Of a stretch of DNA of 64,000 nt, positions 21,526 through 63,305 are shown piece after piece (positions within the stretch are counted from its first letter, which is position 1; every line of letters starts with the position of its first letter). Origin of the DNA: Bacteroidales bacterium 52_46 (GTDB taxonomy: Bacteria; Bacteroidota; Bacteroidia; Bacteroidales; Muribaculaceae); contig MNQK01000031.1 of assembly GCA_001915385.1 (NCBI GenBank), positions 133,166 through 197,165 of the forward strand, given 5' to 3'. A program made the translations under genes and the position numbers. The notes under the pieces were generated by a model. That model had not been told where the DNA came from. It worked only from the letters and a program-made list of their open reading frames with translations, and did no database searches.

Positions 21526-22182
21526 ATGGATAGAAAAGTTGCCGTATTATTTGACCTTGACGGAGTATTAATCGACACAGAAGGCTTATATACAGAATTT
21601 TGGGCGCAGACAGGCCGTGAATTCGGAGTGCCCTCCCCCACTTTTGCCGCCGACATAAAGGGAACCACACTCAAAAGCATACTCAACTATTTCCCCGGCG
21701 ACGAACTTAAGGCGAAAGTGATGCAGCGGATACATGATTTCGAGGATACGATGCAATACCGGATGTTTCCGGGCGTAAGCGAATTTCTTACGGCACTTAA
21801 GGCTGCCGGCATACTGACGGCAATCGTCACGAGCAGCGACGAGGTGAAAATGTCATACCTGTACAAGCAGCTGCCGGTGCTTCGCGATATGGTCGACGAA
21901 GTTATTGACGCATCGATGGTGACCCGGTCGAAGCCCGACCCGCAGGGTTATCTCCTCGCAGCGGAAAAGCTCGGCTGCCGACCGGATGACTGCTACGTAT
22001 TCGAGGACTCGCTCCAGGGCCTTGAAGCCGGTCGCCGTGCCGGCGCGACAGTCATAGGCATTGCCACCACCAACCCCGCCGACACCGTACGCCCTCTTTG
22101 CGACTATCTCCTCCCCTCCTTCATAGGTTTCACCCCCGCCAGCCTGCTTGAAATCAAGAAACAAATACGCCCGAGTTTGTAA
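21526..22182 (+). CDS. HAD-superfamily hydrolase (beta-phosphoglucomutase-like, subfamily IA)
   Basis: Motif I VLFDLDGVLIDTE. Motif III region ...FEDSLQGLEAGRRAG.... A TAATTTTG -7 motif lies at 21488-21495. Confidence 0.85.
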   Translation: MDRKVAVLFDLDGVLIDTEGLYTEFWAQTGREFGVPSPTFAADIKGTTLKSILNYFPGDELKAKVMQRIHDFEDTMQYRMFPGVSEFLTALKAAGILTAIVTSSDEVKMSYLYKQLPVLRDMVDEVIDASMVTRSKPDPQGYLLAAEKLGCRPDDCYVFEDSLQGLEAGRRAGATVIGIATTNPADTVRPLCDYLLPSFIGFTPASLLEIKKQIRPSL

Positions 22183-22219
22183 GGTCGCTATGTAATGCTA
22201 TTTACTTAAGGGGCAAGAT

Positions 22220-22300
22220 GTGGGGCGGGGGCGTCTCGCCCCCGTGGTATTATTTTTATATTCTGAAAGTTACCACGGGGGCGAGACGCCCCTGCCCCAT
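22220..22300. repeat. GC-rich palindromic REP-like element (family B), copy 2
   Basis: GGGGCGGGGGCGTCTCGCCCCCGTGG...CCACGGGGGCGAGACGCCCCTGCCCC. Confidence 0.8.
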
Positions 22301-22426
22301 TCAACCCAACTCAACTCAGCTTAGGTAAACAGCATTGGGACATTTGACCGCTAATTATAATTTTGCAATGCTTTTGACATCGATTGGGACATTGCTTCCT
22401 GTTAATCGGCCGTTAAGTATCCGGTC

Positions 22427-27075: not shown

Positions 27076-27365
27076 GAGTATATATTATTACACAAAAAGT
27101 TAGAAATCGCCTAAATTCAAAGTCGAGTTGTAAAATTGATATTGACGGCTGCATGGTGTATGGCTGCTTCCCGGAACTGCCGATAGTGCAGACTGATTAT
27201 CTTCAACTTGGCGCTGCGCCTGGGTGCAGTCTTACAATTCACTCATAACCAATAAGTTTGTCAGGTGAATAGTTACCTCTAAATCGAGGCTCTATGAAAT
27301 TTTCTTAAAAATTTGGTTATATCCGAAATTGTTTGTAATTTTACGAACAACAAATAAGGAGTAAT

Positions 27366-27695
27366 ATGACGAAATTAGAGATAACGCATGAACAGGAACG
27401 GCTTGCAAGATTTGCTAAAGCCATGGGGCATCCCACCCGCATCGCCATTCTGCACTTCCTCGCACAAAGAAACGAGTGTTTCTTCGGCGACATACACGAA
27501 GTGCTCCCGATAGCTAAAGCAACCGTGTCGCAACATCTTAGCGAGCTGAAAGAAGCGGGCCTGATACAAGGCACAATCGAACCTCCTAAGGTAAAGTATT
27601 GCATCAACTCCGAAAACTGGCAACTTGCCAGACAACTGTTTTCACAGATGCTTGACGAATGCTGTCCTTCAAAAAAGAATAGCTGCTGCTCGTAG
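27366..27695 (+). CDS. ArsR/SmtB-family metalloregulator
   Basis: HTH motif HPTRIAILHFL...CFFGDIHEVLPIAKATVSQHLSELKEAGLI. Cys-rich C-terminus. Confidence 0.85.
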   Translation: MTKLEITHEQERLARFAKAMGHPTRIAILHFLAQRNECFFGDIHEVLPIAKATVSQHLSELKEAGLIQGTIEPPKVKYCINSENWQLARQLFSQMLDECCPSKKNSCCS

Positions 27696-27759
27696 CGCTA
27701 TTTTTTTACGGCCAATGTTCGTAATTCGACAAACAACAACCCAAACAAATATATTCAAT

Positions 27760-28185
27760 ATGAAAAAATTACTGATGATTTTCGCCCTGATTACAGGGCT
27801 GATGTCATGCGCAGGCGGGGAGAAAACCGCTGACGCACCAACTACTGAAACAGATAGAGTAGAAGTCATTTACTTCCATGGCAAGCAACGTTGCGCAACT
27901 TGCAAAGCTATCGAAAACCGTACAAAGGAAGTTGTAAATTCTATGTTCGCAAACGAATTACAAAATGGCGCACTGGTAATCAGGACCATTGATATTTCCA
28001 CTCCCGAAGGTGAGCAACTCGCGGATAAATATGAAGTGGCTTGGTCATCTCTCTTTGTCAACAGGTGGGAAAACGGTAAAGAGACCCGCAACAACATGAC
28101 GGAATTCGGTTTTGGCAATGCGCGAAATAATCCTGAAGTTTTCAAAACAGGGCTTGCCGACAAAATACGCGAATCACTACAATAA
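27760..28185 (+). CDS. Thioredoxin-fold lipoprotein with CxxC motif
   Basis: Lipobox LMSCAGG. CATC redox motif. The start is taken at the internal MKKLLM. Confidence 0.6.
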   Translation: MKKLLMIFALITGLMSCAGGEKTADAPTTETDRVEVIYFHGKQRCATCKAIENRTKEVVNSMFANELQNGALVIRTIDISTPEGEQLADKYEVAWSSLFVNRWENGKETRNNMTEFGFGNARNNPEVFKTGLADKIRESLQ

Positions 28186-28892
28186 TGGACTGGTTACAAA
28201 CATTGCTCGACAACAGCACGGCTCCGGCTCTGACCGCCTTCCTCCTCGGATTGCTCACCGCGATTTCGCCGTGCCCCCTTGCGACCAACATAGCGGCAAT
28301 AGGTTATATAAGCAGGGATATTGAAAACCGGGGACGTATTTTCCGAAACGGGGTGCTTTATACCGTCGGACGAATCATTGCTTATACCATACTCGGCATT
28401 GTACTTATCTCAATACTGAAAGAGGGCGCAAGTGTATTCGGCATACAGAAAGCCATAGGGAAATGGGGTGAGATTTTGATTGGTCCGCTGCTTTTGCTAA
28501 TCGGACTTTTCATGCTGTTCGGGCACAAACTGAATATTCCACAGTTCGGTTTCGGTGGCAAGGGTGAAGGACTTGCCCGGAATGGTGGCCGGGGAGCATT
28601 GTTGCTCGGAGTGCTGTTCGCGATGGCTTTCTGCCCCACAAGTGGTATTTTCTACTTCGGCATGCTCATACCTATGTCAGTAAATGCAAGTGCAGGGTGG
28701 CTTTTACCCGTATTGTTTGCTGTCGCAACCGCGCTCCCGGTGCTTGCAGTTGCATGGATTCTCGCTTTCAGCTTTGAAAAGGTCGGCGAGTTCTACGGTA
28801 AACTGCGTATTGTTCAGAAATGGCTCAACATTATTGTCGGTGTCATTTTCATCGTGACAGGCATATATTACTGCATAATGATATACTTATAA
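28185..28892 (+). CDS. CcdA/DsbD-family thiol:disulfide transmembrane electron-transfer protein
   Basis: Six predicted transmembrane helices. Conserved Cys in ISPCPL and AFCPTSG. Confidence 0.75.
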   Translation: MDWLQTLLDNSTAPALTAFLLGLLTAISPCPLATNIAAIGYISRDIENRGRIFRNGVLYTVGRIIAYTILGIVLISILKEGASVFGIQKAIGKWGEILIGPLLLLIGLFMLFGHKLNIPQFGFGGKGEGLARNGGRGALLLGVLFAMAFCPTSGIFYFGMLIPMSVNASAGWLLPVLFAVATALPVLAVAWILAFSFEKVGEFYGKLRIVQKWLNIIVGVIFIVTGIYYCIMIYL

Positions 28893-28909
28893 CTGTAAAA
28901 CGAAAAAAC

Positions 28910-29332
28910 ATGGATAAAAAAGAATCAAAGAAAGGGTTTTGGTCAACTCTTTTCGCGCCCAAAAAGAAAAGCTGTTGCTGCAACAGCAATATAATCGTGG
29001 AAGACGATGTGAAACCTATTCAGTCGTGCGTCTGCTCAGGTGAATTGGCAGAATCCGCTGAAACCACTTGTTGTGCTGCTGCTCCCGGCGCAAAGGTCAG
29101 CGAGGTGCTTGTACTCGGCCCCGGATGCGCCAAATGCAAGGAGACATACAGGGTAGTTGAGCGTGTAGTCAGTGAGAACAATCTTGATGTCAAACTTTCC
29201 AAAATAGAGGATATAGCCGAGATGATGAGCTATAACATAATGACTACACCAGCAGTGGTAGTTGACGGAACTGTGAGAATCAAGGGGCATGTTCCAACCA
29301 CAGATGAAGTGAGGAAGGCATTCGGAATATAA
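28910..29332 (+). CDS. Thioredoxin-family protein (redox-active disulfide protein 2-like)
   Basis: GPGCAKC active-site motif. About 140 aa. The start is taken at MDKKES. Confidence 0.7.
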   Translation: MDKKESKKGFWSTLFAPKKKSCCCNSNIIVEDDVKPIQSCVCSGELAESAETTCCAAAPGAKVSEVLVLGPGCAKCKETYRVVERVVSENNLDVKLSKIEDIAEMMSYNIMTTPAVVVDGTVRIKGHVPTTDEVRKAFGI

Positions 29333-29395
29333 TCAGAACACAAAAAGCATAGTCATGAACACAAAAAAGGAAGTAAATTCCTGATATGGATCGTT

Positions 29396-30694
29396 GTGTT
29401 ATTTCTGGCAGCATTCTTCATGCCCGTCAACAGCGGGACCTTGTTGACAGCGATACACTCCACTCTTGACCTCGCTAAATGGTATGCCCGTGAGCACATC
29501 GTACTCTGTCTTCTACCGGCGTTCTTCATAGCCGGTGTGATTGCGGTGTTCGTAAGCCAGGGTGCGGTGCTGAAATATTTCGGAGCCAACGCCAAGAAAT
29601 GGGTATCCTATTCGGTAGCCTCCATATCGGGGGGTATCCTTGCCGTATGTTCCTGTACCATCCTCCCGCTGTTCACAAGTATCTACAAGCGCGGTGCGGG
29701 GCTCGGTCCGGCAATAGCTTTCCTTTATTCCGGTCCTGCCATCAGCATACTCTCGATAATACTGACGGCACGCATTCTCGGCTTTGAGATGGGCATTGCC
29801 CGCATTGTCGGGGCTGTGACATTCGCAATAGCCATCGGTCTTGTGATGTCGTTTATCTTCCGCAAAGAGGAGCGCGACAAGAAAATCGAACAAATGAATA
29901 TAGTACCCCCTCCCGAGAAACGCCCGCTTTGGCAGACGGCAGTTTTCTTCTTTACTCTCGTGGCAATCCTCGTGTTTGCCAACTGGGGCGCACCTGCAGC
30001 AATCGACCGTGGAATATGGGCAGCCATATACAATGCCAAATGGTGGATAACATCAGCACTTGCTATCGGACTATGCGTAATTATGGTAAAGATTCTGCAT
30101 CTGAAAACCAGGTGGATTACCCTCGGGGCTATTGCGGTAGCGGTATCTGCTGTTCTCGCAAATGTCTTTATTCCCGATGCAAAACTGGCTCCGCTCGTTC
30201 CGATGATTGTATCAGTAGCCGTGCTTGGCATCGTACTGCTATCAGACAAGACCGATGACGAAAACCGCGAGTGGGCGTTGTCATCGTGGGGATTCGCCAA
30301 GCTGATACTTCCGCTGCTTGCCGTCGGAGTCCTGACTGCCGGTTTCCTGCTCGGATCGACACACGACGGCATGGAGCTTCCCGGCATCATCCCGAACAGT
30401 TGGATTGAATGGGCTGTCGGAGGCAATTCGCTACTCTCGAATTTCTTCGCAAGTTTCACGGGTGCGTTCATGTATTTCGCCACCCTTACCGAGGTGCCGA
30501 TTATTCAAGGATTGCTCGCATCGGGTATGGGTAAAGGACCGGCGCTCGCCCTACTGCTCGCCGGTCCATCACTTTCACTCCCCAATATGCTCGTAATCCG
30601 CAGCGTGATGGGAACGAAGAAAACAGTAATATATGTGGCTCTTGTAATCGTCATGGCGACCGTCTCAGGCTGGGTCTATGGCTATTTCTTCTAA
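29396..30694 (+). CDS. ArsP-like permease (PF03773/DUF318 family)
   Basis: Polytopic membrane protein with the AVCSCTILPLF motif, a Cys-Ser-Cys motif typical of ArsP-type permeases. GTG start. Confidence 0.7.
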   Translation: MLFLAAFFMPVNSGTLLTAIHSTLDLAKWYAREHIVLCLLPAFFIAGVIAVFVSQGAVLKYFGANAKKWVSYSVASISGGILAVCSCTILPLFTSIYKRGAGLGPAIAFLYSGPAISILSIILTARILGFEMGIARIVGAVTFAIAIGLVMSFIFRKEERDKKIEQMNIVPPPEKRPLWQTAVFFFTLVAILVFANWGAPAAIDRGIWAAIYNAKWWITSALAIGLCVIMVKILHLKTRWITLGAIAVAVSAVLANVFIPDAKLAPLVPMIVSVAVLGIVLLSDKTDDENREWALSSWGFAKLILPLLAVGVLTAGFLLGSTHDGMELPGIIPNSWIEWAVGGNSLLSNFFASFTGAFMYFATLTEVPIIQGLLASGMGKGPALALLLAGPSLSLPNMLVIRSVMGTKKTVIYVALVIVMATVSGWVYGYFF

Positions 30695-31253
30695 TAATTT
30701 TTAATATATCTCTAATTTCCTTAGAAATTCGACTATATAAGAGAGTGTTTGAAATTAAACCGTATTAACAATAAACCGTATTAACAATAAAGAGAATGCA
30801 AGGAAAAACTTCAAATCAATCCTGAGGTTTTTTTTGGTTAATTCCGCCAAGTTTCATCAGTCGCATAGCTCGCTATGCTCCTTCTTCAACTCGCGGAATT
30901 ACCTCAAAAAATCCTCTCAGTCTTAATTATGGTTGCCTTTAACAATCATAGGGTTTGTTTATTCGTTATAATGTTATAACTTTGTATTTTAAATCAGAAT
31001 ATGATATGGCAATGACGATTAACTCCTCACCTGTTCTCACCGGTGAATCTGCAAGAGCTTTTGTTGAGGAAGCAGAGCGTAACGGCAAACTACCTACTCC
31101 GCGTCTGTCGCCGGAACGCGAAACGCAAATTGCTGAATTTTTAAAAAAATCGCGCGAGTTCATTTTCCCTCATAGACCATGACATTTTATAAATGATATA
31201 ATACCCCGACTGCGAGGTAACACTTTATATCACGTGATTGCTCCATATATGTA

Positions 31254-32909
31254 ATGAGAAAAGCAGTGTATCTTTTGTTTGTCATTGTGGCTTTGGCTTC
31301 CTGCTCGAAGCCGGAGGCGCGGCATGATAGGGAGATAGGTCAGGCCGAGCAGCTGATGGAGTGCAATCCGGACAGCGCTCTGACTATCCTGGAGGCGATT
31401 GATCCCTCCGACCTCAAAGTGGATTCCTTAAAGGCAAAATTCCATTACCTCAAGGCTTACGGACACATGAGCGCCAATCGATCCATGGTCGGGGACTCGT
31501 TGATTTCCTTCGCCCACAACTATTATCGAGGAAAGGATGTAGTGAAGGACATACGGAGCGCCTCCGCACTTGCATTCTACAAGTTTTGGATTGGCGACAC
31601 TCCGGGGTCCATTGTGATGCTTGATTCTCTCTCAAGTCTTTCCGACGTTCCCGATTCATTAATGGTAGTGGTATTGAGGATTCGCGTCTTGCTCGGTGCA
31701 TCCGAGTATCAAGGCCGTCAGATTATTCCGTTGGCGAAAAGACTTTATAAGTTGGAGACGGATACGCAGAGAAAAGAGGAGGCAAAATACATGCTTCTGG
31801 CAGGTTATGAATACGCCGAGGAGACAGACTCCGCTCTATATCTCGTGAAACAGCTTATCGACTATGCCCGCGACCACAAATGGGGAGACAAGCAGTTCCA
31901 GTTTGCAATCGAACGGGCACAGCTTCTCACCGAAGCCGGGCGCGAAGATGAAAGCGACAGACTTATCGGCGAGATATTCAGCAATGCCGGCTCCGATAAC
32001 GGCGCGGCTGATTTGCTGTATTTACAATACGCAATAAATGCTCTTAACAGAGGAGATGTTGGCCCGGCGGCACAATATCTGGCAACGGCCGACAGCCTTG
32101 CCTTCAGAATGAGAGGCAATGACGACGCTTATTTCCGCAGCTACAGCAACATGCTCCATGCCATAATTGATTTCAAGCAGACCGGACGCATAAAGCTGAT
32201 ACAGATAGCCGGGCTCAACAACCGTATGAACGAGCGCTTCAACCGCCTGAAGGCATCCCAGTGGGAGTCGGAACGCGACGCGCTGCATCAGCGGAACCGC
32301 GCATTGGCTTTAAAAGCCGAAAGCCGGCAGAAGACCGTGATTATCCTTGTGTTATGCCTTGCAGCCTTTCTGATACTCGGCGGCAGCGCATGGATAATCA
32401 GAACGCGCCGTCAGCGTGAACGCGACAAGGAGGAACGCATCGAGGCGCTGCAGAAAATGGTGGACGAATATAAGTCGGCTCCTGCGCAGGAAACGAAGAA
32501 AGCCGGTTTGTCTGCACTACGCGGGATAATGCTCAAACAGCTCGGAATCATCAAGATGGTAGCCGAGACCCCGACCGAACAGAATCGTGAGATGCTGCGT
32601 AAAATTTCGTCAATCGACGGCGAGACCAACGGCGAGCTTGTGGACTGGGGAAAGGTGTTCGAGTTAATTGACAATCTCTATTCCGGATTTTACAGCAGAC
32701 TCCGCCGGCAATATGGCGATCTTCTCAGCCAAAAGGAGGAACAGATAATCGTGCTTATGGTGGCCGGATTTTCCACAAAAGAGATAAGTGTGATAACCGG
32801 GCAGACTACGTCGACAATCTATGTCCGTAAATCATCGATAAGGAAAAAGCTCGGAGTGCCCGAGAAGGACGACATCGTGGCGTTCCTCCGACACCGAAGC
32901 ATAGATTAA
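31254..32909 (+). CDS. Membrane-anchored LuxR-family regulator with periplasmic TPR-like sensor
   Basis: Lipoprotein-type signal peptide (LASCSKP). Helical repeats and a single transmembrane helix (VIILVLCLAAFLILGG). The C-terminal GerE/LuxR HTH has the motif EQIIVLMVAGFSTKEISVITGQTTSTIYVRKSSIRKKLG. Confidence 0.7.
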   Translation: MRKAVYLLFVIVALASCSKPEARHDREIGQAEQLMECNPDSALTILEAIDPSDLKVDSLKAKFHYLKAYGHMSANRSMVGDSLISFAHNYYRGKDVVKDIRSASALAFYKFWIGDTPGSIVMLDSLSSLSDVPDSLMVVVLRIRVLLGASEYQGRQIIPLAKRLYKLETDTQRKEEAKYMLLAGYEYAEETDSALYLVKQLIDYARDHKWGDKQFQFAIERAQLLTEAGREDESDRLIGEIFSNAGSDNGAADLLYLQYAINALNRGDVGPAAQYLATADSLAFRMRGNDDAYFRSYSNMLHAIIDFKQTGRIKLIQIAGLNNRMNERFNRLKASQWESERDALHQRNRALALKAESRQKTVIILVLCLAAFLILGGSAWIIRTRRQRERDKEERIEALQKMVDEYKSAPAQETKKAGLSALRGIMLKQLGIIKMVAETPTEQNREMLRKISSIDGETNGELVDWGKVFELIDNLYSGFYSRLRRQYGDLLSQKEEQIIVLMVAGFSTKEISVITGQTTSTIYVRKSSIRKKLGVPEKDDIVAFLRHRSID

Positions 32910-33067
32910 GAGCTTGTTAAGACCCATTGACGTACCGCTAAGACTTTTAAGAGATGTAGCCGCTGACTTTCAGTAGGTTGTATCTCGTGCATTAAGACTT
33001 TTATATTTGGAGTTAAAATCCTTTTGGACATAATTTTGCATCAGTCAAACATAAAAACTGATGTAAA

Positions 33068-35380
33068 ATGAAAGCAAGTATTCTTACACTCCTAATGGTA
33101 TTTTTGGTTGTGGCTGCGGGCTATGGCCGCGAAATTTCGGGCAAAGTGGTCGGAGAAAACGACGCTCCGCTCGACTATGTCAACGTCGTGCTGTACCGCG
33201 ACTCGACCTATATCACCGGCACTGTAACTGACGAGGCCGGTAGGTTCTCCTTATCCGCTGACACTATCGGCAATCTCTCCGCCAAAGTTTCTTTTGTCGG
33301 TTATGAATCTTCCGAGCTTCCTGTTCCCCCATCGGGCGAAATGGGAATAATCAACCTTAAGCCGGCTACCGTACAACTCGGCGAGGTGGAGGTCCGCGCC
33401 ACACGACCCTCTACGACCATGAGGGGCAATGCACTCGTCACCAATGTAGAGGGCAGTTCCCTCGCCATCGCCGGTACGGCCAACGACGTGCTGACGCGCG
33501 TGCCGATGGTTGTAGACAACGACGGTAAACCGGAGGTATTCGGCAGAGGCGAGCCGGCAATCTACATCAACGGGCGAAAGGTCAATGACCTTCAGGAACT
33601 CTCCCAACTCAATTCAAATGACATAAAGAATGTCTCCGTCATTACCAATCCGGGAGCCTCCTATGCTGCCAACGTGAAATCCGTAATCATTATCCGTACA
33701 AAACCGCCGAAAGGTGACGGATTCAGCGGCACGTTCCGAACCGACAACGGCTTCAATTACTATTTCCGCACCGGAAACTCAATCGACCTGAAATATCGTA
33801 CCGGAGGACTCGAAGTATACGCCAACTATGGCTGGTGGTACGGCAACAACCGCGACGACCGTTCTAACGATATGACCACTACCACTGCATCAGGAATATA
33901 CAACCAATCAATCCGAACAATAGGCAAACAGTCATACAACGACATGACAGGCAAAGCCGGCTTCTCTTTCATGTTTAATGAAAAGCACAGCATCGGGGCT
34001 TATTATCAGAACAGCTGGAACCGACACCATGCCACCGGGACAATTCCAAGCGAAATATGGCAGAACGGTGCATTGCTTGACCGCTATAATTCCGATGTAA
34101 ACAACAGATTCACGGCATTGCCGTGCCATAATATAAATCTTTATTACAACGGTACAGTCGGGAAGTTAAACATTGACTTTAACGCGGACTATCTGTGGAA
34201 TAAAAACCGTGAACTTTCATTGAGCGACGAACTCAGCGAGAAGGGAGACGACCGCAATGTCAGCACTACCTCGGTCAACCGCAACCGCATGTTTGCCGAG
34301 AAACTGGTTGTCAGTCATCCTCTCTGGCTTGGCGAGATAAGTTTTGGAGAAGAATACACGAATACTCGCACCACCAATCTCTTTACCGCAAACATACCCG
34401 AAGTTCAGGATGCCGACAATCGTGTGGACGAAAGCAATATCGCAGCTTTTGTGGAGTTCGGGCGGCAGTTCGGTCGTTTCAACGTCGGCGTCGGACTCCG
34501 CTACGAGCATGTGAAGTTCGATTACTACGAGATGGGAGAGCATCGCGACGGACAGAGCAAAACTTACAACAATCTGTTTCCTTCGCTCGACCTCGCCACG
34601 CAGATAGGAACGGTCCGCATGGTGCTGAGCTATTCCGGCAAGACCGTCCGTCCCGGCTACGAGCAGCTCAACGGTGCCGTCAGTTATATCAACCGACTTA
34701 CCTACGAGACCGGAAATCCGTATCTGAAACCGACAAAAATGCAAACCGTGGAATATATGGCGCAATGGCGCCAGTTCTTCGCCCAGATGTCATATACATA
34801 CTACAAAGATGGCGTGTACTTCATAACCGAGCCTTACGGTGAGGACGGAGAGGCAACCATTATCCGTACAGCCAACCTTGACCGGCGCCATTATTTTCAG
34901 GCTTTTGTTGGCGGCCAGTTCAAAGTCGGGATATGGTCGCCCCGTGTGAATGTAGGCATGATGAAGCAATGGCTCACTCTTCCGGTCGACGGCAAGCCGA
35001 TGAAGATGAACAGTCCGGGCTTTCTGTTCCAGTGGCAGAACGCTATCCACCTTTCTTCCGACATCTGGGTCAATGTCGACGCACAGCTGATGACACATAT
35101 ACGGGACAATAACCAGAAACTTGCCAACACCCCATGGTATGTCAACGCCAAGATTTATAAAGGGTTCTTCGACAATGCTTTCAGCTTAACTCTCGAAGCA
35201 AAAGACCTGTTCAACACATCACGGAATGAAGCCGTCCTGTATAACGATGCCGTACAGATTGCTCAGAAGAATTTCACGCCCGGCCGCTCGGTAATGCTCA
35301 CCCTCCAGTATCGATTCAACACCACCCGCGACCGCTATCGCGGCACAGGCGCCGGCAACAGCGAGAAATCCCGCTTCTAA
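33068..35380 (+). CDS. Outer-membrane beta-barrel protein, TonB-dependent-receptor-like with N-terminal carboxypeptidase-regulatory-like domain
   Basis: Signal peptide. The CarbopepD_reg-like segment is VVLYRDSTYITGTVTDEAGRFSL. A plug-like region and a long beta-strand-rich C-terminus follow. Confidence 0.75.
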   Translation: MKASILTLLMVFLVVAAGYGREISGKVVGENDAPLDYVNVVLYRDSTYITGTVTDEAGRFSLSADTIGNLSAKVSFVGYESSELPVPPSGEMGIINLKPATVQLGEVEVRATRPSTTMRGNALVTNVEGSSLAIAGTANDVLTRVPMVVDNDGKPEVFGRGEPAIYINGRKVNDLQELSQLNSNDIKNVSVITNPGASYAANVKSVIIIRTKPPKGDGFSGTFRTDNGFNYYFRTGNSIDLKYRTGGLEVYANYGWWYGNNRDDRSNDMTTTTASGIYNQSIRTIGKQSYNDMTGKAGFSFMFNEKHSIGAYYQNSWNRHHATGTIPSEIWQNGALLDRYNSDVNNRFTALPCHNINLYYNGTVGKLNIDFNADYLWNKNRELSLSDELSEKGDDRNVSTTSVNRNRMFAEKLVVSHPLWLGEISFGEEYTNTRTTNLFTANIPEVQDADNRVDESNIAAFVEFGRQFGRFNVGVGLRYEHVKFDYYEMGEHRDGQSKTYNNLFPSLDLATQIGTVRMVLSYSGKTVRPGYEQLNGAVSYINRLTYETGNPYLKPTKMQTVEYMAQWRQFFAQMSYTYYKDGVYFITEPYGEDGEATIIRTANLDRRHYFQAFVGGQFKVGIWSPRVNVGMMKQWLTLPVDGKPMKMNSPGFLFQWQNAIHLSSDIWVNVDAQLMTHIRDNNQKLANTPWYVNAKIYKGFFDNAFSLTLEAKDLFNTSRNEAVLYNDAVQIAQKNFTPGRSVMLTLQYRFNTTRDRYRGTGAGNSEKSRF

Positions 35381-35546
35381 ACCCCATAATATGAAGATGT
35401 CGCAGAACCGTGCGTCCCTACAATTTGCTGCGACTTTTGACCGCTAATTATAGTTCTACAATAACCTCCGTGGGGAACGAATTAACCACGACCTCAAGCG
35501 ATTGGAGACCGCACCGGCGTGCAGCCCGATGCTATTTACTTAAGTT

Positions 35547-35581
35547 GAGTGGAGCGGGGGCGTCTCGCCCCCGCTCCACTC
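35547..35581. repeat. GC-rich palindromic element (family B), short perfect-palindrome form
   Basis: GAGTGGAGCGGGGGCGTCTCGCCCCCGCTCCACTC lies between convergent genes. Confidence 0.8.
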
Positions 35582-35608
35582 TGAAGTCGTTAATTAAAGG
35601 CTGCGAGG

Positions 35609-36454
35609 TCAGCAGGCTTTGAAGCTGAGGTCGAGGCCTTTTACGGAGTGAGTCAGGGCGCCTACGGAGATGTAGTCGACGCCGCATTCGCCGTATTGGC
35701 GGAGGGTGTCGAGGGTGATACCGCCTGAGGATTCGATTTCTACGCGACCTGCTATATGCGCTACGGCTTCGCGGGTGCGTTCGGGGGTGAAGTTGTCGAG
35801 CATGATACGGTCGATGCCTGCGGCGAGTGCCTGGTCGATTTCTTCGGTGTTGCGCACTTCGACTTCAATCTTGAGGTCGCGGCCTGTTTCCTTGCAGTAT
35901 TTTTTTGCTGCTGCTACTGCCTGCGGGATGCCGCCGGCGAAGTCAATGTGGTTGTCCTTGATGAGTATCATGTCGAAGAGGCCGATGCGGTGGTTTTCGC
36001 CTCCGCCGATTTTGACTGCCTCCTTTTCGAGGAGACGCATGCCGGGAGTGGTCTTGCGCGTATCGAGGACTTTGGTCTTGAGCCCGGCAAGGCGGTCCTG
36101 ATATTTGGCGGTCATTGTGGCGATACCGCTCATTCGCTGCATGATGTTGAGCATGGTGCGTTCGGTCTGGAGCAGTGAGCGTACGCGGCCTTCAACCACA
36201 AATGCGATGTCGCCGGGCTTTACGCGGGCACCGTCGTTGATGAAGACGGTCATTTTCAACTCGGGGTCGAAGTAGTTGAATACGCGGCGTGCCATCTCGA
36301 CGCCGGCAAGTATGCCTTCTTCCTTTACGATAAGCTGCTGACGTCCCATTTCGTCGGCGGGAATGGTTGAGAGTGTGGTATGGTCGCCATCGCCCACATC
36401 TTCGGCAAATGCCAGGGCGATAAGGTCATCGATAAGTTCGTCCTTCGTTTTCAT
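35609..36454 (-). CDS. nadC: Nicotinate-nucleotide pyrophosphorylase (quinolinate phosphoribosyltransferase)
   Basis: Full-length match to the NadC family. Motifs ...KDNHI... and ...GGITLDTL.... Confidence 0.9.
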   Translation of the reverse strand: MKTKDELIDDLIALAFAEDVGDGDHTTLSTIPADEMGRQQLIVKEEGILAGVEMARRVFNYFDPELKMTVFINDGARVKPGDIAFVVEGRVRSLLQTERTMLNIMQRMSGIATMTAKYQDRLAGLKTKVLDTRKTTPGMRLLEKEAVKIGGGENHRIGLFDMILIKDNHIDFAGGIPQAVAAAKKYCKETGRDLKIEVEVRNTEEIDQALAAGIDRIMLDNFTPERTREAVAHIAGRVEIESSGGITLDTLRQYGECGVDYISVGALTHSVKGLDLSFKAC

Positions 36455-36499
36455 GTCTTATAATAATTGATTAATTTTGCGCAAAATTACGGAATAAAA

Positions 36500-36976
36500 A
36501 TGAAAATATCGCTCTATATCATCGGAAAAACGACTGCGGCTTATCTGCGCGAGGGAATTGAAATATACTGCAAACGCCTGGGACATTATGTGCCGTTTGA
36601 AATAAAACAGTTTCCCGACGCGAAAGTGACCAAAGGCACGAGCGAGAGCGTGCAGAAGGTGAAAGAGGGGGAAATGTTTCTCGAACAGATACGCACGAGC
36701 GACTATGTAGTGCTTCTCGACGAGCGGGGCAAGGAGATGACATCGCGCGATTTCGCAGCATATATCGACAAGCGCATGGCATCGGCAGGAGCGGGCAATA
36801 TAATATTCGTAATCGGAGGGCCTTACGGATTTTCGGAGGCGATGTACGCACGTGCCGACAGCAAGGTATCGTTCTCGCAGATGACATTCTCACACGAGAT
36901 GATACGCCTGCTGTTTGTGGAGCAACTGTACCGTGCCATGACGATATTGCGCGGAGAACCGTACCATCATGACTGA
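36500..36976 (+). CDS. rlmH: 23S rRNA (pseudouridine1915-N3)-methyltransferase RlmH
   Basis: SPOUT fold. About 157 aa. Motif ...LLDERGKEMTS...GGPYGF.... Confidence 0.88.
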   Translation: MKISLYIIGKTTAAYLREGIEIYCKRLGHYVPFEIKQFPDAKVTKGTSESVQKVKEGEMFLEQIRTSDYVVLLDERGKEMTSRDFAAYIDKRMASAGAGNIIFVIGGPYGFSEAMYARADSKVSFSQMTFSHEMIRLLFVEQLYRAMTILRGEPYHHD

Positions 36977-37057
36977 TGGAATTTTGAATTTTGAAGGTGG
37001 AATTTTGAATGGGGCCTTCGACGCTGTAATTGATTTTGGAATTTTGAATGGGATTCG

Positions 37058-37639
37058 TTAGTTTTCAACTGTGCCTTTGTCGTCCCCGCTGTTGTCGGGG
37101 TTGAAGAGGCGGTCTTCGTCATCGAGTTTGAAGTAATGGGCAAGGAGGGCTATGAAGCGGGATATCTGGGCTATGGCGTTGGCTGTCTCGGGGGTTACTT
37201 CCTTTGATTGCAGACGCATCATCAGCATGCCGTAGAGGGCATTGAAGCACGTCTCGATTTCGCCGGCGGGATTTTCTCCGGCTTTCGCGCGAAGCTCGAC
37301 TATGAACGGTAGTGTGCGATAGAACTCGGCGGAGTATTCGGCGAAACGGGGGTCAGCGAGCAGCGCGCGGTGAAGCTGCACAAGCTGCACGATTACGTTT
37401 TTGTTGATCTGCAGGTGACCGGATTTGACGACGTCCTCGCGGCGCATCATGTCGATAAGCGATTCATACCATTCGGTCATCTCGCGGCGTTGAGCGTCGT
37501 CGAGGCTGAAACGGTCAATGACGTTTTCCTTTATTTTCTCTATGTCGAGGTTGTTGGCGCGGATTATATCCTCAATCTGCCACATATAGATGAGATACTC
37601 GGCAATATTTTCCTTTCGTTTCTGCGATGCTATTATCAT
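37058..37639 (-). CDS. Hypothetical cytoplasmic protein (DUF4924-like)
   Basis: Helical, about 193 aa. The start is taken at MIIASQKRK because the upstream in-frame extension runs into the repeat element. The family name is from memory and is uncertain. Confidence 0.55.
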   Translation of the reverse strand: MIIASQKRKENIAEYLIYMWQIEDIIRANNLDIEKIKENVIDRFSLDDAQRREMTEWYESLIDMMRREDVVKSGHLQINKNVIVQLVQLHRALLADPRFAEYSAEFYRTLPFIVELRAKAGENPAGEIETCFNALYGMLMMRLQSKEVTPETANAIAQISRFIALLAHYFKLDDEDRLFNPDNSGDDKGTVEN

Positions 37640-37737
37640 AATCTTCGTTTTTATCAATGCTCGGATACATATAATATAACAAATTTGGAAGAAATTTTCC
37701 TGCACAGGAATCCAAGATAGGAGATCTGTACCATGGA

Positions 37738-38052
37738 CACACAGACCGTGCAATGCAGTTCAAATAAGACGTAATTCGTCAACGTAGAGCCGAAGGCTCG
37801 GGGGTGTTACTATCCCCGTCCGACGCGTAGCGGAGGGCGGGGTAAAAGGGAATACGCTGTGCGAGCCCACAGAGAGGGCGAGTGTGATGCTCTCTGATTC
37901 ATTATTCTACACAGTCGCCCGTTCCACGGGCTCACTTTATGAATGGTCGCGGTTGCCCCGCCCTCCGCTACGCGTCGGACGGGGATAGTAACACCCCCGA
38001 GCCTTCGGCTCTCAGCTATTTGAACCGCATTGCACAGAGCGTGCGTCCCTAT
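37738..38052. repeat. Large palindromic intergenic element (family C), copy A
   Basis: Termini ...CACAGACCGTGCAATGCAGTTCAAATAAG... and ...CTATTTGAACCGCATTGCACAGAGCGTGCGTCCCTA. Internal perfectly inverted ~56-bp arms GAGCCGAAGGCTCGGGGGTGTTACTATCCCCGTCCGACGCGTAGCGGAGGGCGGGG. Confidence 0.8.
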
Positions 38053-38249
38053 ATTTTGGGATTCTGCACCTTTCCTATATCTGAAATGCGCAGGCACTCC
38101 GTGGTATACGCGATACAAAAATATGCATTTTAAACAGAAGTTCCAAAAGATTAAACGGAGTAACGGGTCGCGTTTCACGACCTGTTACCCCGTTCGGGAT
38201 TGAAATGATTAAAATAACTCTTTTAAGAGGTTGTCTAAGAAGTATTTAT

Positions 38250-39098
38250 TTACCAGGCGAAATCAAAAGTTTCCTCTTCACTGCCCCATTCGTCAGTTGA
38301 AACGGTTGTCAACTTTATAGGCAGATTCCCGGCATTTAATGTCCATGAGAATGTTTTGTTCCAACTATAGGTATCTTCTTCCGGATCAAATCTCACGTAA
38401 TTATTTGACACCGGAAGCTGCCTTGTTGCCTTACCGAGCAGACCGGCAAAATATGCATATTCCATTTCATCCATATCAATACCGAAAGTATCATCAAAAA
38501 GCATTATACAGCCCTTGTTTTCAATCGCTGAAGAACCATAACCGATTTTATAGTCACCGCCGCAGTTATCTTCTTCAGAGCGAACTTTTACAGCTGTGAC
38601 ATTGCCATCAGTATAGGTTATGTCGGTCACCTCATTTCCGCCTTCGGTACGTTTCATTTTTGTAAGCCGACCGTCTGAATTGTATTCAAACCACCATTCT
38701 TCAATATCACCATCACTTTCAATCTGCCTGCAATATTTTGTAAAACCTGCATCGTTGAGCAACAGATTGAACACATACCTATCCTCGTCATCTTCCACCT
38801 GCATAACGACATCATAAGAATCAGCACGCCCGATGCCTGGATAGGCAAATGTGATTCTTATACCGTCTTCTGAATCATTCATCGATACAACACGTCCGTC
38901 GGCGCCCTTTATTATATTCAATGCGCCTACCTTCGATGGTAATCCGGCAGTGAAAACGTTTGATGGATTTACGACAACCCCGGGATTGTTTCCTCCACCC
39001 GGGACATTATTGTCATCGTCATCATCACTGCACGATACGAATCCTGCGCCGCACGCAACAGCAGCCAAAGCAATTCCTGTAAATTTCAAAAAATTCAT
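38250..39098 (-). CDS. Hypothetical lipoprotein (DUF4595-like)
   Basis: Lipobox FVSCSDDDDD. The start is taken at the internal MNFLKF. The domain name is tentative. Confidence 0.55.
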   Translation of the reverse strand: MNFLKFTGIALAAVACGAGFVSCSDDDDDNNVPGGGNNPGVVVNPSNVFTAGLPSKVGALNIIKGADGRVVSMNDSEDGIRITFAYPGIGRADSYDVVMQVEDDEDRYVFNLLLNDAGFTKYCRQIESDGDIEEWWFEYNSDGRLTKMKRTEGGNEVTDITYTDGNVTAVKVRSEEDNCGGDYKIGYGSSAIENKGCIMLFDDTFGIDMDEMEYAYFAGLLGKATRQLPVSNNYVRFDPEEDTYSWNKTFSWTLNAGNLPIKLTTVSTDEWGSEEETFDFAW

Positions 39099-39226
39099 TT
39101 CTGTAAATGTTTTTATGTCCTCCCGTCTCAAAAGGACGTATTATAAATATAGATTTTAATTGTGGGGGGGCGAGACTACGTCATATCCGATGATAAGACA
39201 CCCCGGTCTGATCATACACGGTTTAT

Positions 39227-46402: not shown

Positions 46403-46448
46403 ATGCACGTATGGGGGGGTGCAAAACTGCTAAATTCAGGCCAACAAA

Positions 46449-46774
46449 GTAGGGACGCACGGTCTGTGCAATGCGGTTCAAATAAGGAGTAATTCGTCAA
46501 TGTAGAGCCGAAGGCTCGGCGGTGTTACTATCCCCGTCCGACGCGTAGCGGAGGGCGGGGTAAAAGGGAATATGCTGTGCGAGCCCACGTAGAGGGCGAG
46601 TGTGTGTGATGGCTTCAGATGTAGTATTCAACACATTCGCCCGTTCCCCGGGCTCACTTTATGAAAGGTCGCGGTTGCCCCGCCCTCCGCTACGCGTCGG
46701 ACGGGGATAGTAACACCTCCGAGCCTTCGGCTCTCAGTTATTTGAACCGCATTGCACGGTCTGTGCGTCCCTAC
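46449..46774. repeat. Large palindromic intergenic element (family C), copy B
   Basis: Its ends and arms are near-identical to copy A. The central loop is divergent. Confidence 0.8.
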
Positions 46775-46814
46775 TATTGGGGGTTCTGTAACATCCTCAT
46801 GGCATTATTCTTAT

Positions 46815-46857
46815 TTACTGAAAGTTATTACGGGGGCGTCTCGTCCCCGCTCCACTC
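46815..46857. repeat. GC-rich palindromic element (family B), half copy
   Basis: CTGAAAGTTATTACGGGGGCGTCTCGTCCCCGCTCCACTC. Confidence 0.7.
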
Positions 46858-47460
46858 AACTCAGATTAAGTATACAGCATTGAATCGAGTACCTACGATT
46901 TGCGGCGACTTTTGATAACTGTTTATAACTCTGCAATTTATAGCTCTGCAATCTCGGCAGATAATTCACCGGGAACCCATGTTCGCTTTCCGAGCGCACA
47001 GACCGTACGTTCATATTTTCGGGAGATTTGTGGTAGCTATTCAGCGAATATGTAATATGTAAAGTGCTTAAGGCTGCATCCCGGCGCAGTCGAGACTGAT
47101 GCAAACGGGTGTTTTCATCTGCGCATGGCTGCACCGGGGTGCAGCACCACAATATGCTCGTAACCAATAAGTTTGTCAGCCTAATAGTTATGATTTGTGT
47201 CGCATTTACAAAATAGAGATTAATGACAGGAAAATTTAAACAAATCGAAAAGCAGGAGTGTTATTATATCAAAATTAAGATACATAAAGTTAATTTAAAA
47301 TAAGAGACTTAGTATCAAGAACCTTCAAACAAGAGACTCCATACAGAAGACTCCTGTTATCTTAAACAAGAGACTCCCGTCACAGGAATTTCCGAAGAGT
47401 TTAAATCGAAGTTGAAAATATAATATAATCAACATACTGTTTAACTAATCTATTTAAGTT

Positions 47461-51365: not shown

Positions 51366-51551
51366 GCGTGGCAAAGCGCCAAAGGCGATGATTAACCGCG
51401 GTGACGATGAATGGAATATGGATTGATTATCGGTTAATTATCGGACGCACAGACCGTGCGTCCCTACACCGCCGGACATAGTTTTGTCGTTCTGCGACAC
51501 CCTCAGAGAAATATAAAATTTAACCTTGCAGCAGGACAGCTGCCGACAGAT

Positions 51552-59526: not shown

Positions 59527-59649
59527 GATACTCCACAGGCATATACCAAACGAAGCAGGGCTGACATACAGGAATGTCAGCCCTTGCTTTATTCAGGTTC
59601 CCATACAGCATGCAAGGGCGTTTCGCCATCGTGGTATTTGTGTAGAATA

Positions 59650-59797
59650 GTGTATCAGAGCGCATCACACACTCGCCCTCTCCGTGGGCTCGCACACGCG
59701 TATTCCCTTTTACCCCGCCCTCCGCTAACGCGTCGGACGGGGATAGTGACACCACCGAGCCTTCGGCTCTCCGCTATTAGAACCGCATTGCACAGAC
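59650..59797. repeat. Family C palindromic element, half copy (one arm, inverted), truncated by a MITE insertion
   Basis: Reverse complement of the copy A left arm. It ends with ...GCATTGCACAGACCGTGCGTCC. Confidence 0.75.
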
Positions 59798-59976
59798 CGT
59801 GCGTCCTACTAGTGGTCAATCTTTTTTCTACATAATTTAGAGCATTGAAAAGGCTTAAATTATTAAATCCTTAATCTAAAGTATTTTATGAACAAAACTC
59901 AGGATAAATAGTTAATAAAGCTTTAAGTCTGAATGACTATTTCACATGTATTATAATTAAAGATTGACCACTAGTA
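59798..59976. mobile_element. MITE-like element with 15-bp terminal inverted repeats (TACTAGTGGTCAATC) and a 9-bp target-site duplication (CGTGCGTCC)
   Basis: Perfect terminal inverted repeats flank a ~150-bp AT-rich core. The direct repeat CGTGCGTCC lies at 59789-59797 and 59977-59985. The insertion splits the conserved terminal motif CGTGCGTCCCTACA of repeat family C. Confidence 0.65.
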
Positions 59977-60037
59977 CGTGCGTCCCTACATCGTTGGCTA
60001 AAATTCAGCAGTTTTGCAACGCCTTTCATACAACCCG

Positions 60038-60113
60038 CAAACAAACAAACAAACAAACAAACAAACAAACAATCAATCAATCAATCAATCAAACAATCAA
60101 TCAATAAGTTTGT
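60038..60113. repeat. Tetranucleotide microsatellite (CAAA)9(CAAT)5CAAA(CAAT)3
   Basis: Read directly from the sequence. It lies about 230 bp upstream of the NlpC/P60 gene. Confidence 0.9.
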
Positions 60114-60341
60114 ATTGCCGAATAGTTACCGGATATTGCCTAAATGTTATAATTTAACAAAATTAACAAAAGATAATATTATATATGATTGCAGGGCTTG
60201 GATATGGGCATCGTTTTCGCTAACTTTGTGAGTAGTAAAAACAACCCGACGTTTCGATTATAATATGAATTGAGGTTTTCAACATTTTCGATCAATCGAA
60301 AGCCTGTTTTCAAAATCGTTTCGATTATAACCCTTACCGAC

Positions 60342-60929
60342 GTGATTAGACGAATATTCATATCCTTAATACTGACCATGGTTGCGGCCACCGTATCGGC
60401 GCAGCATACGAGAGTACCCTCCCACGAAGCAGCCGAGCGCTATGCGGCGATGGAGAAAGTGGATCTTACGCGCCATCTGCCCGACATCAACAACCGCGAG
60501 CTCAAATCATTCGCAAGCGACGAGGCTGTCATGACGGCAAACGACATGCTGTCGCTGGCACGCACGTTCATCGGTCTGCGTTACCGTTACGGAGGCAGGA
60601 CGCCTAAGGGGTTTGACTGCTCAGGATTCACATCGTATATCTTCTCACAATTCGGATATGAACTGAAGCGTTCGTCGCGCGACCAATACCGCTGCGACGG
60701 CGAGATTGTCGACAAAATGCAGGTACAGCCCGGCGACCTTATCTTCTTCACGGGACGCAATTCGAAATCGGGCAACGTGGGCCATGTGGGCATCGTTGTC
60801 GACGGCGACCCTGTCACCGGCCAGATTACATTCATCCACTCCGCCTGCTCATCAGGCATATCAATCGACACGACTGACGACCCTTATTACTCAAAAAGAT
60901 TTATCGGAGTGAAAAGAGTAATCAAGTGA
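60342..60929 (+). CDS. NlpC/P60 (C40) family peptidase
   Basis: Signal peptide (GTG start) IRRIFISLILTMVAATVSAQ. Catalytic region GFDCSGFTSYIF...GHVGIV...H. Confidence 0.8.
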   Translation: MIRRIFISLILTMVAATVSAQHTRVPSHEAAERYAAMEKVDLTRHLPDINNRELKSFASDEAVMTANDMLSLARTFIGLRYRYGGRTPKGFDCSGFTSYIFSQFGYELKRSSRDQYRCDGEIVDKMQVQPGDLIFFTGRNSKSGNVGHVGIVVDGDPVTGQITFIHSACSSGISIDTTDDPYYSKRFIGVKRVIK

Positions 60930-60990
60930 CGACCCATTGCCGGCACGCATCTCCCGCCTGTTCAATCGGCCGCTTTATATAATTTTATAG

Positions 60991-63048
<2,058 letters not shown>

Positions 63049-63082
63049 CAGCAGAACCGAGATTCGATGCTGTTTGCTTATG

Positions 63083-63160
63083 TGGAGCGGGGGCGTCTCG
63101 CCCCCGGGGTATTATTTTTATTCACTGAAAGTTACCACGGGGGCGAGACGCCCCCGCCCC
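63083..63160. repeat. GC-rich palindromic REP-like element (family B), copy 5
   Basis: GGAGCGGGGGCGTCTCGCCCCCGGGG...CCACGGGGGCGAGACGCCCCCGCCCC immediately after ligA. Confidence 0.8.
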
Positions 63161-63305
63161 TATCAACTCAGCGTAAGTTAATAGCGATAAATCGCGTCTC
63201 TACAAGTTGTTACGAAGCGCCGAGCCATCCTATGGCCTGATACTTGAAGGCTACCTCGAACAATCGGCCTCCTGTAAGTGTTTTATGATAAAAATACTGA
63301 AAAAA

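Follow-up and report, generated by a model that had tools for sequence, protein, structure and literature searches.

Intergenic palindromes in a gut Bacteroidales chromosome resemble gene-less pairs of the inverted arms that flank a Y1 transposase gene

Genomic neighbourhood of the three copies

The window (the whole 64-kb stretch of DNA that was analysed) belongs to the core chromosome of a Muribaculaceae-like gut bacterium of the Bacteroidales, and its contig recurs in human-gut metagenomes. It contains three copies of a palindromic element, referred to as A, B and C (Table 1), which sit where a first-pass annotation of the sequence had placed them. Copy A lies between the stop of a DUF4595 gene (38250–39131, minus strand) and the start of a DUF4924 gene (also minus), copy B is downstream of the terminator of the thrS-infC-rpmI-rplT operon, and copy C follows the terminator of the fumarate hydratase gene (59557–59584). 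The upstream genes carry their own terminators, consisting of a hairpin and a T-run, ahead of the element. No transposase gene was found within the 64-kb window.

Table 1. Positions of the element copies and of their parts in the window
Feature	Position	Strand	Remarks
Copy A, whole	37733–38052	.	degenerate half-REP, linker, arm, centre, arm, linker, half-REP
Copy A, left arm	37775–37890	minus (arm profile)	outer end at 37775; subterminal hairpin GAGCC-GAAG-GGCTC at 37787–37799
Copy A, centre	37891–37905	.	residue at the place held by the Y1 gene in gene-bearing units (alignment)
Copy A, right arm	37906–38023	plus	subterminal hairpin GAGCC-TTCG-GGCTC at 37999–38011
Copy B, whole	46449–46774	.	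starts with GTAGGGACGCAC, ends with GTGCGTCCCTAC; GTAG/CTAC feet intact
Copy B, left arm	46493–46608	minus	subterminal hairpin at 46505–46517
Copy B, right arm	46628–46745	plus	subterminal hairpin at 46721–46733
Copy C	59640–59806	plus	remnant of the doublet centre (59640–59663), single arm (59664–59781), linker, start of a half-REP
Copy C, arm hairpin	59757–59769	plus	
Displaced half-REP end of copy C (CGTGCGTCCCTAC)	59977–59989	plus	split off by a 170-bp MITE at 59807–59976

Structure of the copies

Copies A and B are long imperfect palindromes which are 89% identical to each other over ~320 nt, in agreement with the first description. In copy A, the GC-rich inner arms of 60 nt at 37786–37845 and 37953–38012 are 98% complementary and include a perfectly inverted 56-nt core. 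In copy B, the arms at 46504–46563 and 46675–46734 are 97% complementary, with one mismatch (GGCGG versus CCTCC), so that the earlier statement that both copies have perfectly inverted 56-bp arms is right for the core of copy A and wrong for copy B. The inverted termini that had been quoted for the two copies fit the left end of copy B only, the left terminus of copy A being degenerate (ATGGACACAC...), and the 5-nt loop of the terminal hairpin of copy B (GGTCT) reads the same on the plus strand at both ends, which makes it a direct repeat, not an inverted one.

This terminal hairpin, GCAC-NNNNN-GTGC, has a loop that is flipped between copies, GGTCT in one sense and AGACC in the other (46458–46466 and 46757–46765; 37742–37750 and 38034–38042); in most doublets, the loops at the two ends of a copy have the same sense. 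The flipped loops suggest hairpin-loop inversion.

A profile built from 55 arms detects exactly five arms in the window, two in copy A, two in copy B and one in copy C. The two arms of a doublet are of different sequence types over their inner 45 nt, and the centre that separates them is only 15–19 nt long in copies A and B. The left arm of copy A has the "long" form of the outer junction, TTCGTCAACGTA. Copy C is a single arm, as originally reported, but the doublet centre is still present, as are a few terminal bases of the arm that was lost, and copy C is therefore a truncated doublet and not a primordial monomer. Its two pieces are contiguous in two related loci that lack the MITE (L019 and L022).

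Copies A and B contain no protein-coding gene beyond spurious ORF calls. The ORFs at 37939–38133 and 46661–46915, which had already been dismissed, do exist, but the residues that they have in common are only those encoded by the repeat, after which they run into unrelated flanks; since, in addition, the arms differ by 1-nt indels that break the frame (GCTACGCG versus GCTAACGCG), these ORFs are spurious.

Dispersal and strain variation

A degenerate 35-mer taken from the arm identified four loci in two MAGs, one from Muribaculaceae and one from Bacteroidales, and a 23-mer matched 41 metagenome loci; no viral contig was matched by the 23-mer. A search with a single arm returned 80 arms, which correspond to ~25 distinct sites in Muribaculaceae/Bacteroidales MAGs and gut metagenomes. 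Most of these sites are head-to-head doublets with 20–50 nt between the arms, and true singlets also occur. The similarity to the window is confined to the element, and the flanks of the copies are unrelated. This rules out a segmental duplication, which had been proposed as the finding that would speak against a repeat family, and together with the ~25 other sites it establishes that the family is dispersed.

In assembly ERZ824598, a contig syntenic with the window has a coverage of ~9x, and seven contigs that bear the element are covered 8.7–10x. This match suggests that there are at least 7 copies of the element per genome; the number of detectable copies per genome is ~7–10.

The family also varies between strains. 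Three forms of site B are found in strains that do not differ in their L20 protein: the site is occupied by copy B, or by other repeats without copy B, or by a diverged relative together with different downstream genes. These alternative alleles correspond to a wholesale exchange of the intergenic mosaic. The diverged relative is a sister palindrome (GGGCCGGAGGCTCGCGGATTG...) seen in L032 (14215–14524) and in L051, and it is in L051 that the downstream genes differ as well. A clean empty site was not found at any of the three positions: site A is occupied in 5/5 contigs from related strains, site C is uniform in near-identical strains, and site B is replaced by the mosaics described above.

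Metagenome assemblies break at these palindromes of ~320 bp and in the surrounding REP mosaics; such repeats also mark points of rearrangement between strains, and they produce spurious ORF calls in Muribaculaceae genomes. One contig, L022, links positions 59977–63064 of the window to positions 27127–37991 at a repeat, and both of its ends lie inside arms of the element; this join comes either from a rearrangement in the strain or from a chimeric assembly.

A Y1 transposase gene between the arms

The search for a protein partner was a relaxed HUH/Y-motif scan of all the collected loci, and it gave one match, a 147-aa ORF in locus L017, which a distance of 52 nt separates from an arm, measured to the inner end of the latter. 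This ORF encodes a Y1 transposase (Pfam PF01797, E = 1.4e-20). Its close homologues (69–99% identity) are few and mostly found on contigs of ~1 kb, and most contigs that carry the gene are shorter than 2 kb, which is expected because repeats break assembly. In L061, L062 and L063, the Y1 gene is exactly between two inverted arms. The members of the cluster that lie on long contigs provide 16 further loci (L066–L081), and the arms flank the gene in 16/16, with further arms nearby. In these 19 loci, the gene codes for an IS200-like Y1 protein of 147–148 aa, the upstream arm ends 19–54 nt before the ATG and the downstream arm begins 7–14 nt past the stop. The ends of the unit are inverted repeats of ~120 nt. 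In another locus (L012), the genes between two arms are blaI/blaR1-like and do not encode a transposase.

As judged from the alignments, copies A and B are homologous to the arms that flank the gene: both copies align to the two arms of the gene-bearing units, and only a segment of ~490 nt, the one that contains the gene, is missing. The BLAST scores separate the two possible orientations of copies A and B relative to the Y1 gene weakly. Distant homologues of the Y1 protein (30–37% identity), including that of a Daejeonella MAG, are also flanked by inverted repeats that bear hairpins.

The Y1 protein scores 62–71 bits against the NCBIfam IS200 model NF033573, above the cut-off of 55, and 28–31 bits against the RAYT model NF047646, well below the cut-off of 80; its nearest solved relatives are IS200-type transposases. 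The motifs MPDHVH and YIxNQExHH are common to 8/8 homologues. The latter is the signature of subclass 1.2 in the classification of Quentin et al. 2018 (PMC6006769), whose authors describe a low-copy subclass that occurs in Cyanobacteria and Bacteroidetes only, lacks terminal structures and has no associated REP. The family described here is thus a dispersed repeat family linked to transposases that were reported to have none. If this link is true, REPtron-like partnerships are not confined to RAYTs.

Within a species, the Y1 gene has one conserved chromosomal context. For the Y1 protein P0011, it lies between serS-yqeY and PQ-loop-Big_2 (24 contigs read); for P0009, between the gene of a 385-aa protein and that of a PIF1-like helicase (22 contigs read). 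This single context makes the arrangement similar to a REPtron or TIRtron, with doublets that resemble REPINs, and unlike a multi-copy IS.

Folding and constraints on the hairpins

A single strand of copy A folds into one hairpin of −217 kcal/mol, far beyond what is expected by chance (z = −19.9 relative to shuffled sequences). The stability of a single arm is unremarkable (z = −0.95). When 55 distinct arms are folded together, the consensus has three local hairpins, in which 99.1% of cells pair. The subterminal hairpin, GAGCC-NNNN-GGCTC, is paired in 100% of the 55 arms and has double changes at 3/5 of its pairs. In total, 4 base pairs are changed on both sides, compared to 0.6 ± 0.7 in shuffled alignments (0/500 shuffles reach 4), and when the partners are slid along the sequence as a control, at most 1 double-changed pair is obtained, and 0 at 5/6 offsets.

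Three of the four double-changed pairs fall in this subterminal hairpin, which has 5 bp and is the outermost one. A change confined to one arm, to GGGTC...GACCC, is seen in L020/L021, and it keeps the local hairpin and breaks the pairing with the other arm; the constrained unit is therefore the subterminal hairpin of the arm itself. These substitution patterns show that the outermost hairpin of each arm has undergone compensatory changes, by which it is apparently maintained. It must be kept in mind, as an argument against this reading, that compensatory changes in short palindromes can also come from template switching, with no need for selection. Recognition of a subterminal hairpin by Y1 enzymes of this superfamily is established for IS608, ISDra2 and the RAYT of E. 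coli.

In arms that are otherwise near-invariant, each of the four bases is found at the position N of the motif CACCNCC, 3 nt 5' of the subterminal hairpin (for example 37802, 37996, 46520, 46718 and 59753). In IS608-type elements, a "guide" tetranucleotide is located at the corresponding place. An inspection by eye revealed no partner 3' of the hairpin that covaries with this base.

Regarding known RNA families, the only Rfam match in the whole window at the gathering threshold is the tmRNA. With a permissive E-value, the best hits of copy A reach 24 bits and 15 bits, below the respective thresholds of 60 and 100 bits. The tmRNA gene (14223–14622, minus strand; tag peptide GEKQYALAA) adjoins a repeat cluster.

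The REP shell

Canonical REPs with a GTAG foot occur in the same contigs, as do REPIN doublets, and their stems are of three types. The type I REP reads GTAG-GGACGCAC-GGTCT-GTGCGTCC, and the same foot and stem are given for a RAYT of subclass 2.4 in Table S1 of Quentin et al. 2018 (PMC6006769). Di Nocera et al. 2013 (PMC3733652) do not list GTAG REPs for Bacteroidetes. Examples of REPs and REPIN doublets are found at 51447–51467, 27213–27275 and 47128–47190 in the window, and in L036 (656), L029 (11233), L020 (2439) and L004 (5600–5661).

In copies A, B and C, the doublet is bordered on either side by a type I REP, the two REPs being inverted relative to each other; each of them lacks part of its inner stem and continues into a linker (CAATGCGGTTCAAATA...). 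The GTAG feet belong to this outer shell of half-REPs, and they are degenerate in copy A and present in copies B and C. In other copies of the element, the shell is made of type II half-REPs or of another terminal module, or there is none. The gene-bearing units are devoid of GTAG feet, and so are the core doublets of L002, L006, L015 and L037. Since the shell is variable or absent and the gene-bearing units have no GTAG, the part that is related to Y1 is the core doublet, and the shell represents a distinct layer of REP sequence. The nesting would have come about by insertion of the doublet into a REPIN or by joint spread of the whole composite.

We also considered that the sequence GCAC-GGTCT-GTGC, present at both ends of copy B, could be a target-site duplication generated inside one REP. 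This was rejected because intact REPs are followed by G and not by CTAC, and because each end of copy B has its own GTAG foot and outward flank. No short REP with two feet was found.

Origin of the doublets

We consider it probable that copies A and B consist of the ~115-nt inverted arms which, in related gut Bacteroidales, flank a single-locus Y1 gene (HUH, IS200-type), joined head to head in a doublet that lacks the gene, and that copy C is such a doublet minus one arm. Of the three possibilities raised in the first-pass annotation, that of a non-autonomous mobile element is the one that agrees with our results, since a unit with a Y1 gene has these arms as its two ends, the copies are dispersed at unrelated sites in several genomes, and site B varies between strains. 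Mobilisation in trans by the Y1 enzyme is what we infer by analogy with TnpA of IS200/IS605 and with RAYTs. Like these enzymes, the Y1 protein would recognise the subterminal hairpins on single-stranded DNA, cut next to them, and move, excise or copy the doublet without any target-site duplication. Copy C, which has one arm, would be immobile and inert.

A giant REPIN, which extends from a GTAG foot to a CTAC foot and is moved by a RAYT, with the Y1-derived doublet as mere cargo, is an unlikely description of the composite. In this hypothesis, the pairing of the arms brings GGACGCAC and GTGCGTCC together as the basal stem of a canonical GTAG-footed REP. It is in line with the presence of GTAG REPs and REPIN doublets of three types in the same contigs, with the match between the foot and stem and those of a subclass 2.4 RAYT, and with the fact that the same shell is found at different sites in copies A, B and C and in L010, L012, L028 and L038. 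However, a motif search of the ~0.5 Mb of collected loci detected no RAYT gene, both the gene-bearing units and certain core doublets have no GTAG foot, and the half-REPs retain only 4 bp of their own stem. A classical MITE, whose long terminal inverted repeats are recognised by a DDE transposase, would have the inverted ends, the small size and the lack of ORF that are observed, but we regard it as extremely improbable: the gene between the arms is a Y1 transposase in 19/19 loci, the repeated sequence at the ends of copy B is part of two half-REPs in inverted orientation, both of which have a GTAG foot, and, in place of a target-site duplication of fixed length, no consistent direct repeats are seen at the ends of the core, with the qualification that these ends are placed approximately and that there is no clean empty site for comparison.

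The other rival hypotheses give the palindromes a function for the host. That they are kept as bidirectional terminators, mRNA-stabilising hairpins or insulators is suggested by their 3' intergenic placement and by the huge hairpin that they can form, and REPs in E. coli do have side effects of this kind (PMC3733652). Yet the upstream genes end in their own hairpin and T-run before the element, the long hairpin is followed by no T tract, and copy B is missing in related strains that have the same operon; the proposal that the elements are terminators is therefore not supported, and a host role is in general very unlikely. Also very unlikely is a role as a structured non-coding RNA, as had also been proposed, or as a cis-regulatory RNA, be it for each arm or for the palindrome in full. 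The doublet hairpin is very stable, the local hairpins display some covariation, and one strand has a cUUCGg tetraloop, but a single arm folds no better than shuffled sequence, no Rfam family is matched at the gathering threshold or with a credible E-value, and the elements are found in either orientation relative to their neighbours, after the terminators, with a presence that varies by strain and with arms that flank a transposase gene.

Going beyond the relation of the doublets to the Y1 unit, it may be that the subclass 1.2 Y1 gene and the arm doublets form a second, independently domesticated partnership of the REPIN-RAYT type. In gut Bacteroidales, a vertically inherited, single-locus IS200-type enzyme would then sustain large palindromic replicators in small numbers, and these would be interlocked with co-resident GTAG REPs, through insertion into REP hairpins or through co-mobilisation by way of the GTAG feet. 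We put this idea forward tentatively and consider it rather doubtful.

Comparison with known systems

The kind of system is known: it is a REPtron or TIRtron with doublets, and with gene-less derivatives that resemble PATEs. What is new is the clade of the enzyme (subclass 1.2), the size of the arm and its construction from three hairpins, the group of hosts and the nesting in GTAG REPs. Our search of the literature returned no description of repeats associated with subclass 1.2, of the three-hairpin arm, of a Bacteroidales host or of nesting in GTAG REPs.

Like the REPIN-RAYT systems (REPtrons) of Proteobacteria, the family combines a syntenic, single-locus Y1 gene flanked by cognate repeats with a dispersed form in which inverted doublets predominate, each able to fold as a single long hairpin; in both cases, singlets are decayed doublets and the repeats are intergenic. 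On the other hand, the protein is outside the RAYT clade and fits the IS200 model and the subclass 1.2 motif, and the repeat is a ~115-nt sequence with three local hairpins and no GTAG foot of its own, whereas a REP is a hairpin of 20–40 nt with a 5' GT[AG]G foot. The detectable copies are also few by comparison, only ~7–10 per genome.

The TIRtrons, in which the gene of a tyrosine transposase (TIRYT) is flanked by long inverted repeats whose copies form a moderately abundant family of dimers or clusters (Di Nocera et al. 2013, PMC3733652), are similar in both respects. TIRYTs are nevertheless described as RAYT-like and in other phyla, the GGGGWSAS motif that they share is not seen in this Bacteroidales family, and neither this family nor the nesting in GTAG REPs appears in that study.

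PATEs, the gene-less derivatives of IS200/IS605 (PMC10055086, PMC3119063), also keep both structured ends and conserved subterminal hairpins without any protein-coding gene, and their mobilisation in trans by TnpA is presumed. IS200/IS605 elements do not, however, end in inverted repeats, and the hairpins at their ends act on one strand, unlike the long inverted repeats described here; the parent of a PATE is a multi-copy IS at variable sites, in contrast with the one conserved gene context per species; and neither TnpB nor omega-RNA is involved in the present case. Canonical IS200/IS605 elements are defined by asymmetric ends and by a gene in several copies at variable sites, and the present family has neither. 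Lastly, BIMEs and the mosaic intergenic repeats of E. coli and Neisseria are likewise made of several nested repeat families and vary between strains, but their modules are different, and one of the modules in the present mosaics derives from a transposase unit.

Other repeats of the mosaics

The 170-bp MITE that interrupts copy C is AT-rich, has perfect 15-bp inverted ends (TACTAGTGGTCAATC) and is bordered by a 9-bp target duplication (CGTGCGTCC). Further copies are found in L052 (3522–3691) and L028 (800–969), and it is absent from the site in L019/L022. In 3/3 copies, the MITE is inserted in the 9 nt that directly follow the GTAG foot of a REP (GGACGCACG twice, GGCTGCACC once), which indicates that it targets REPs.

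A second palindromic family, with hairpins GGAGCGGGGGCGTC(T/C)CGCCCCCG, is present in the window at 13563–13818, 22160–22370, 35410–35600, 46773–46937 and 63064–63214. It has a linker (CAATGCTGTTTACTTAAG) and half-REP ends in common with some copies of the element, and one of its copies abuts copy B.

Most REP feet have, 15–35 nt outside, a GTTTTGCAAC-like box that points outward (for example at 46418–46428, 60008–60018 and 51480–51500), even toward the 3' end of a convergent gene. This box is similar to the −7 promoter element of Bacteroidetes, TAnnTTTG, and is a candidate promoter by resemblance only.

Next to site A, at ~36990–37072, the window has short tandem GGAATTTTGAAT units, where L014 (9193–10555) and L031 have an extra 1.36 kb; this extra segment was set aside, as it encodes a leucine-rich-repeat (LRR) protein. 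Last, a (CAAA)n(CAAT)n microsatellite at 60030–60100, upstream of an NlpC/P60 gene, differs in length between strains (L019, L022).
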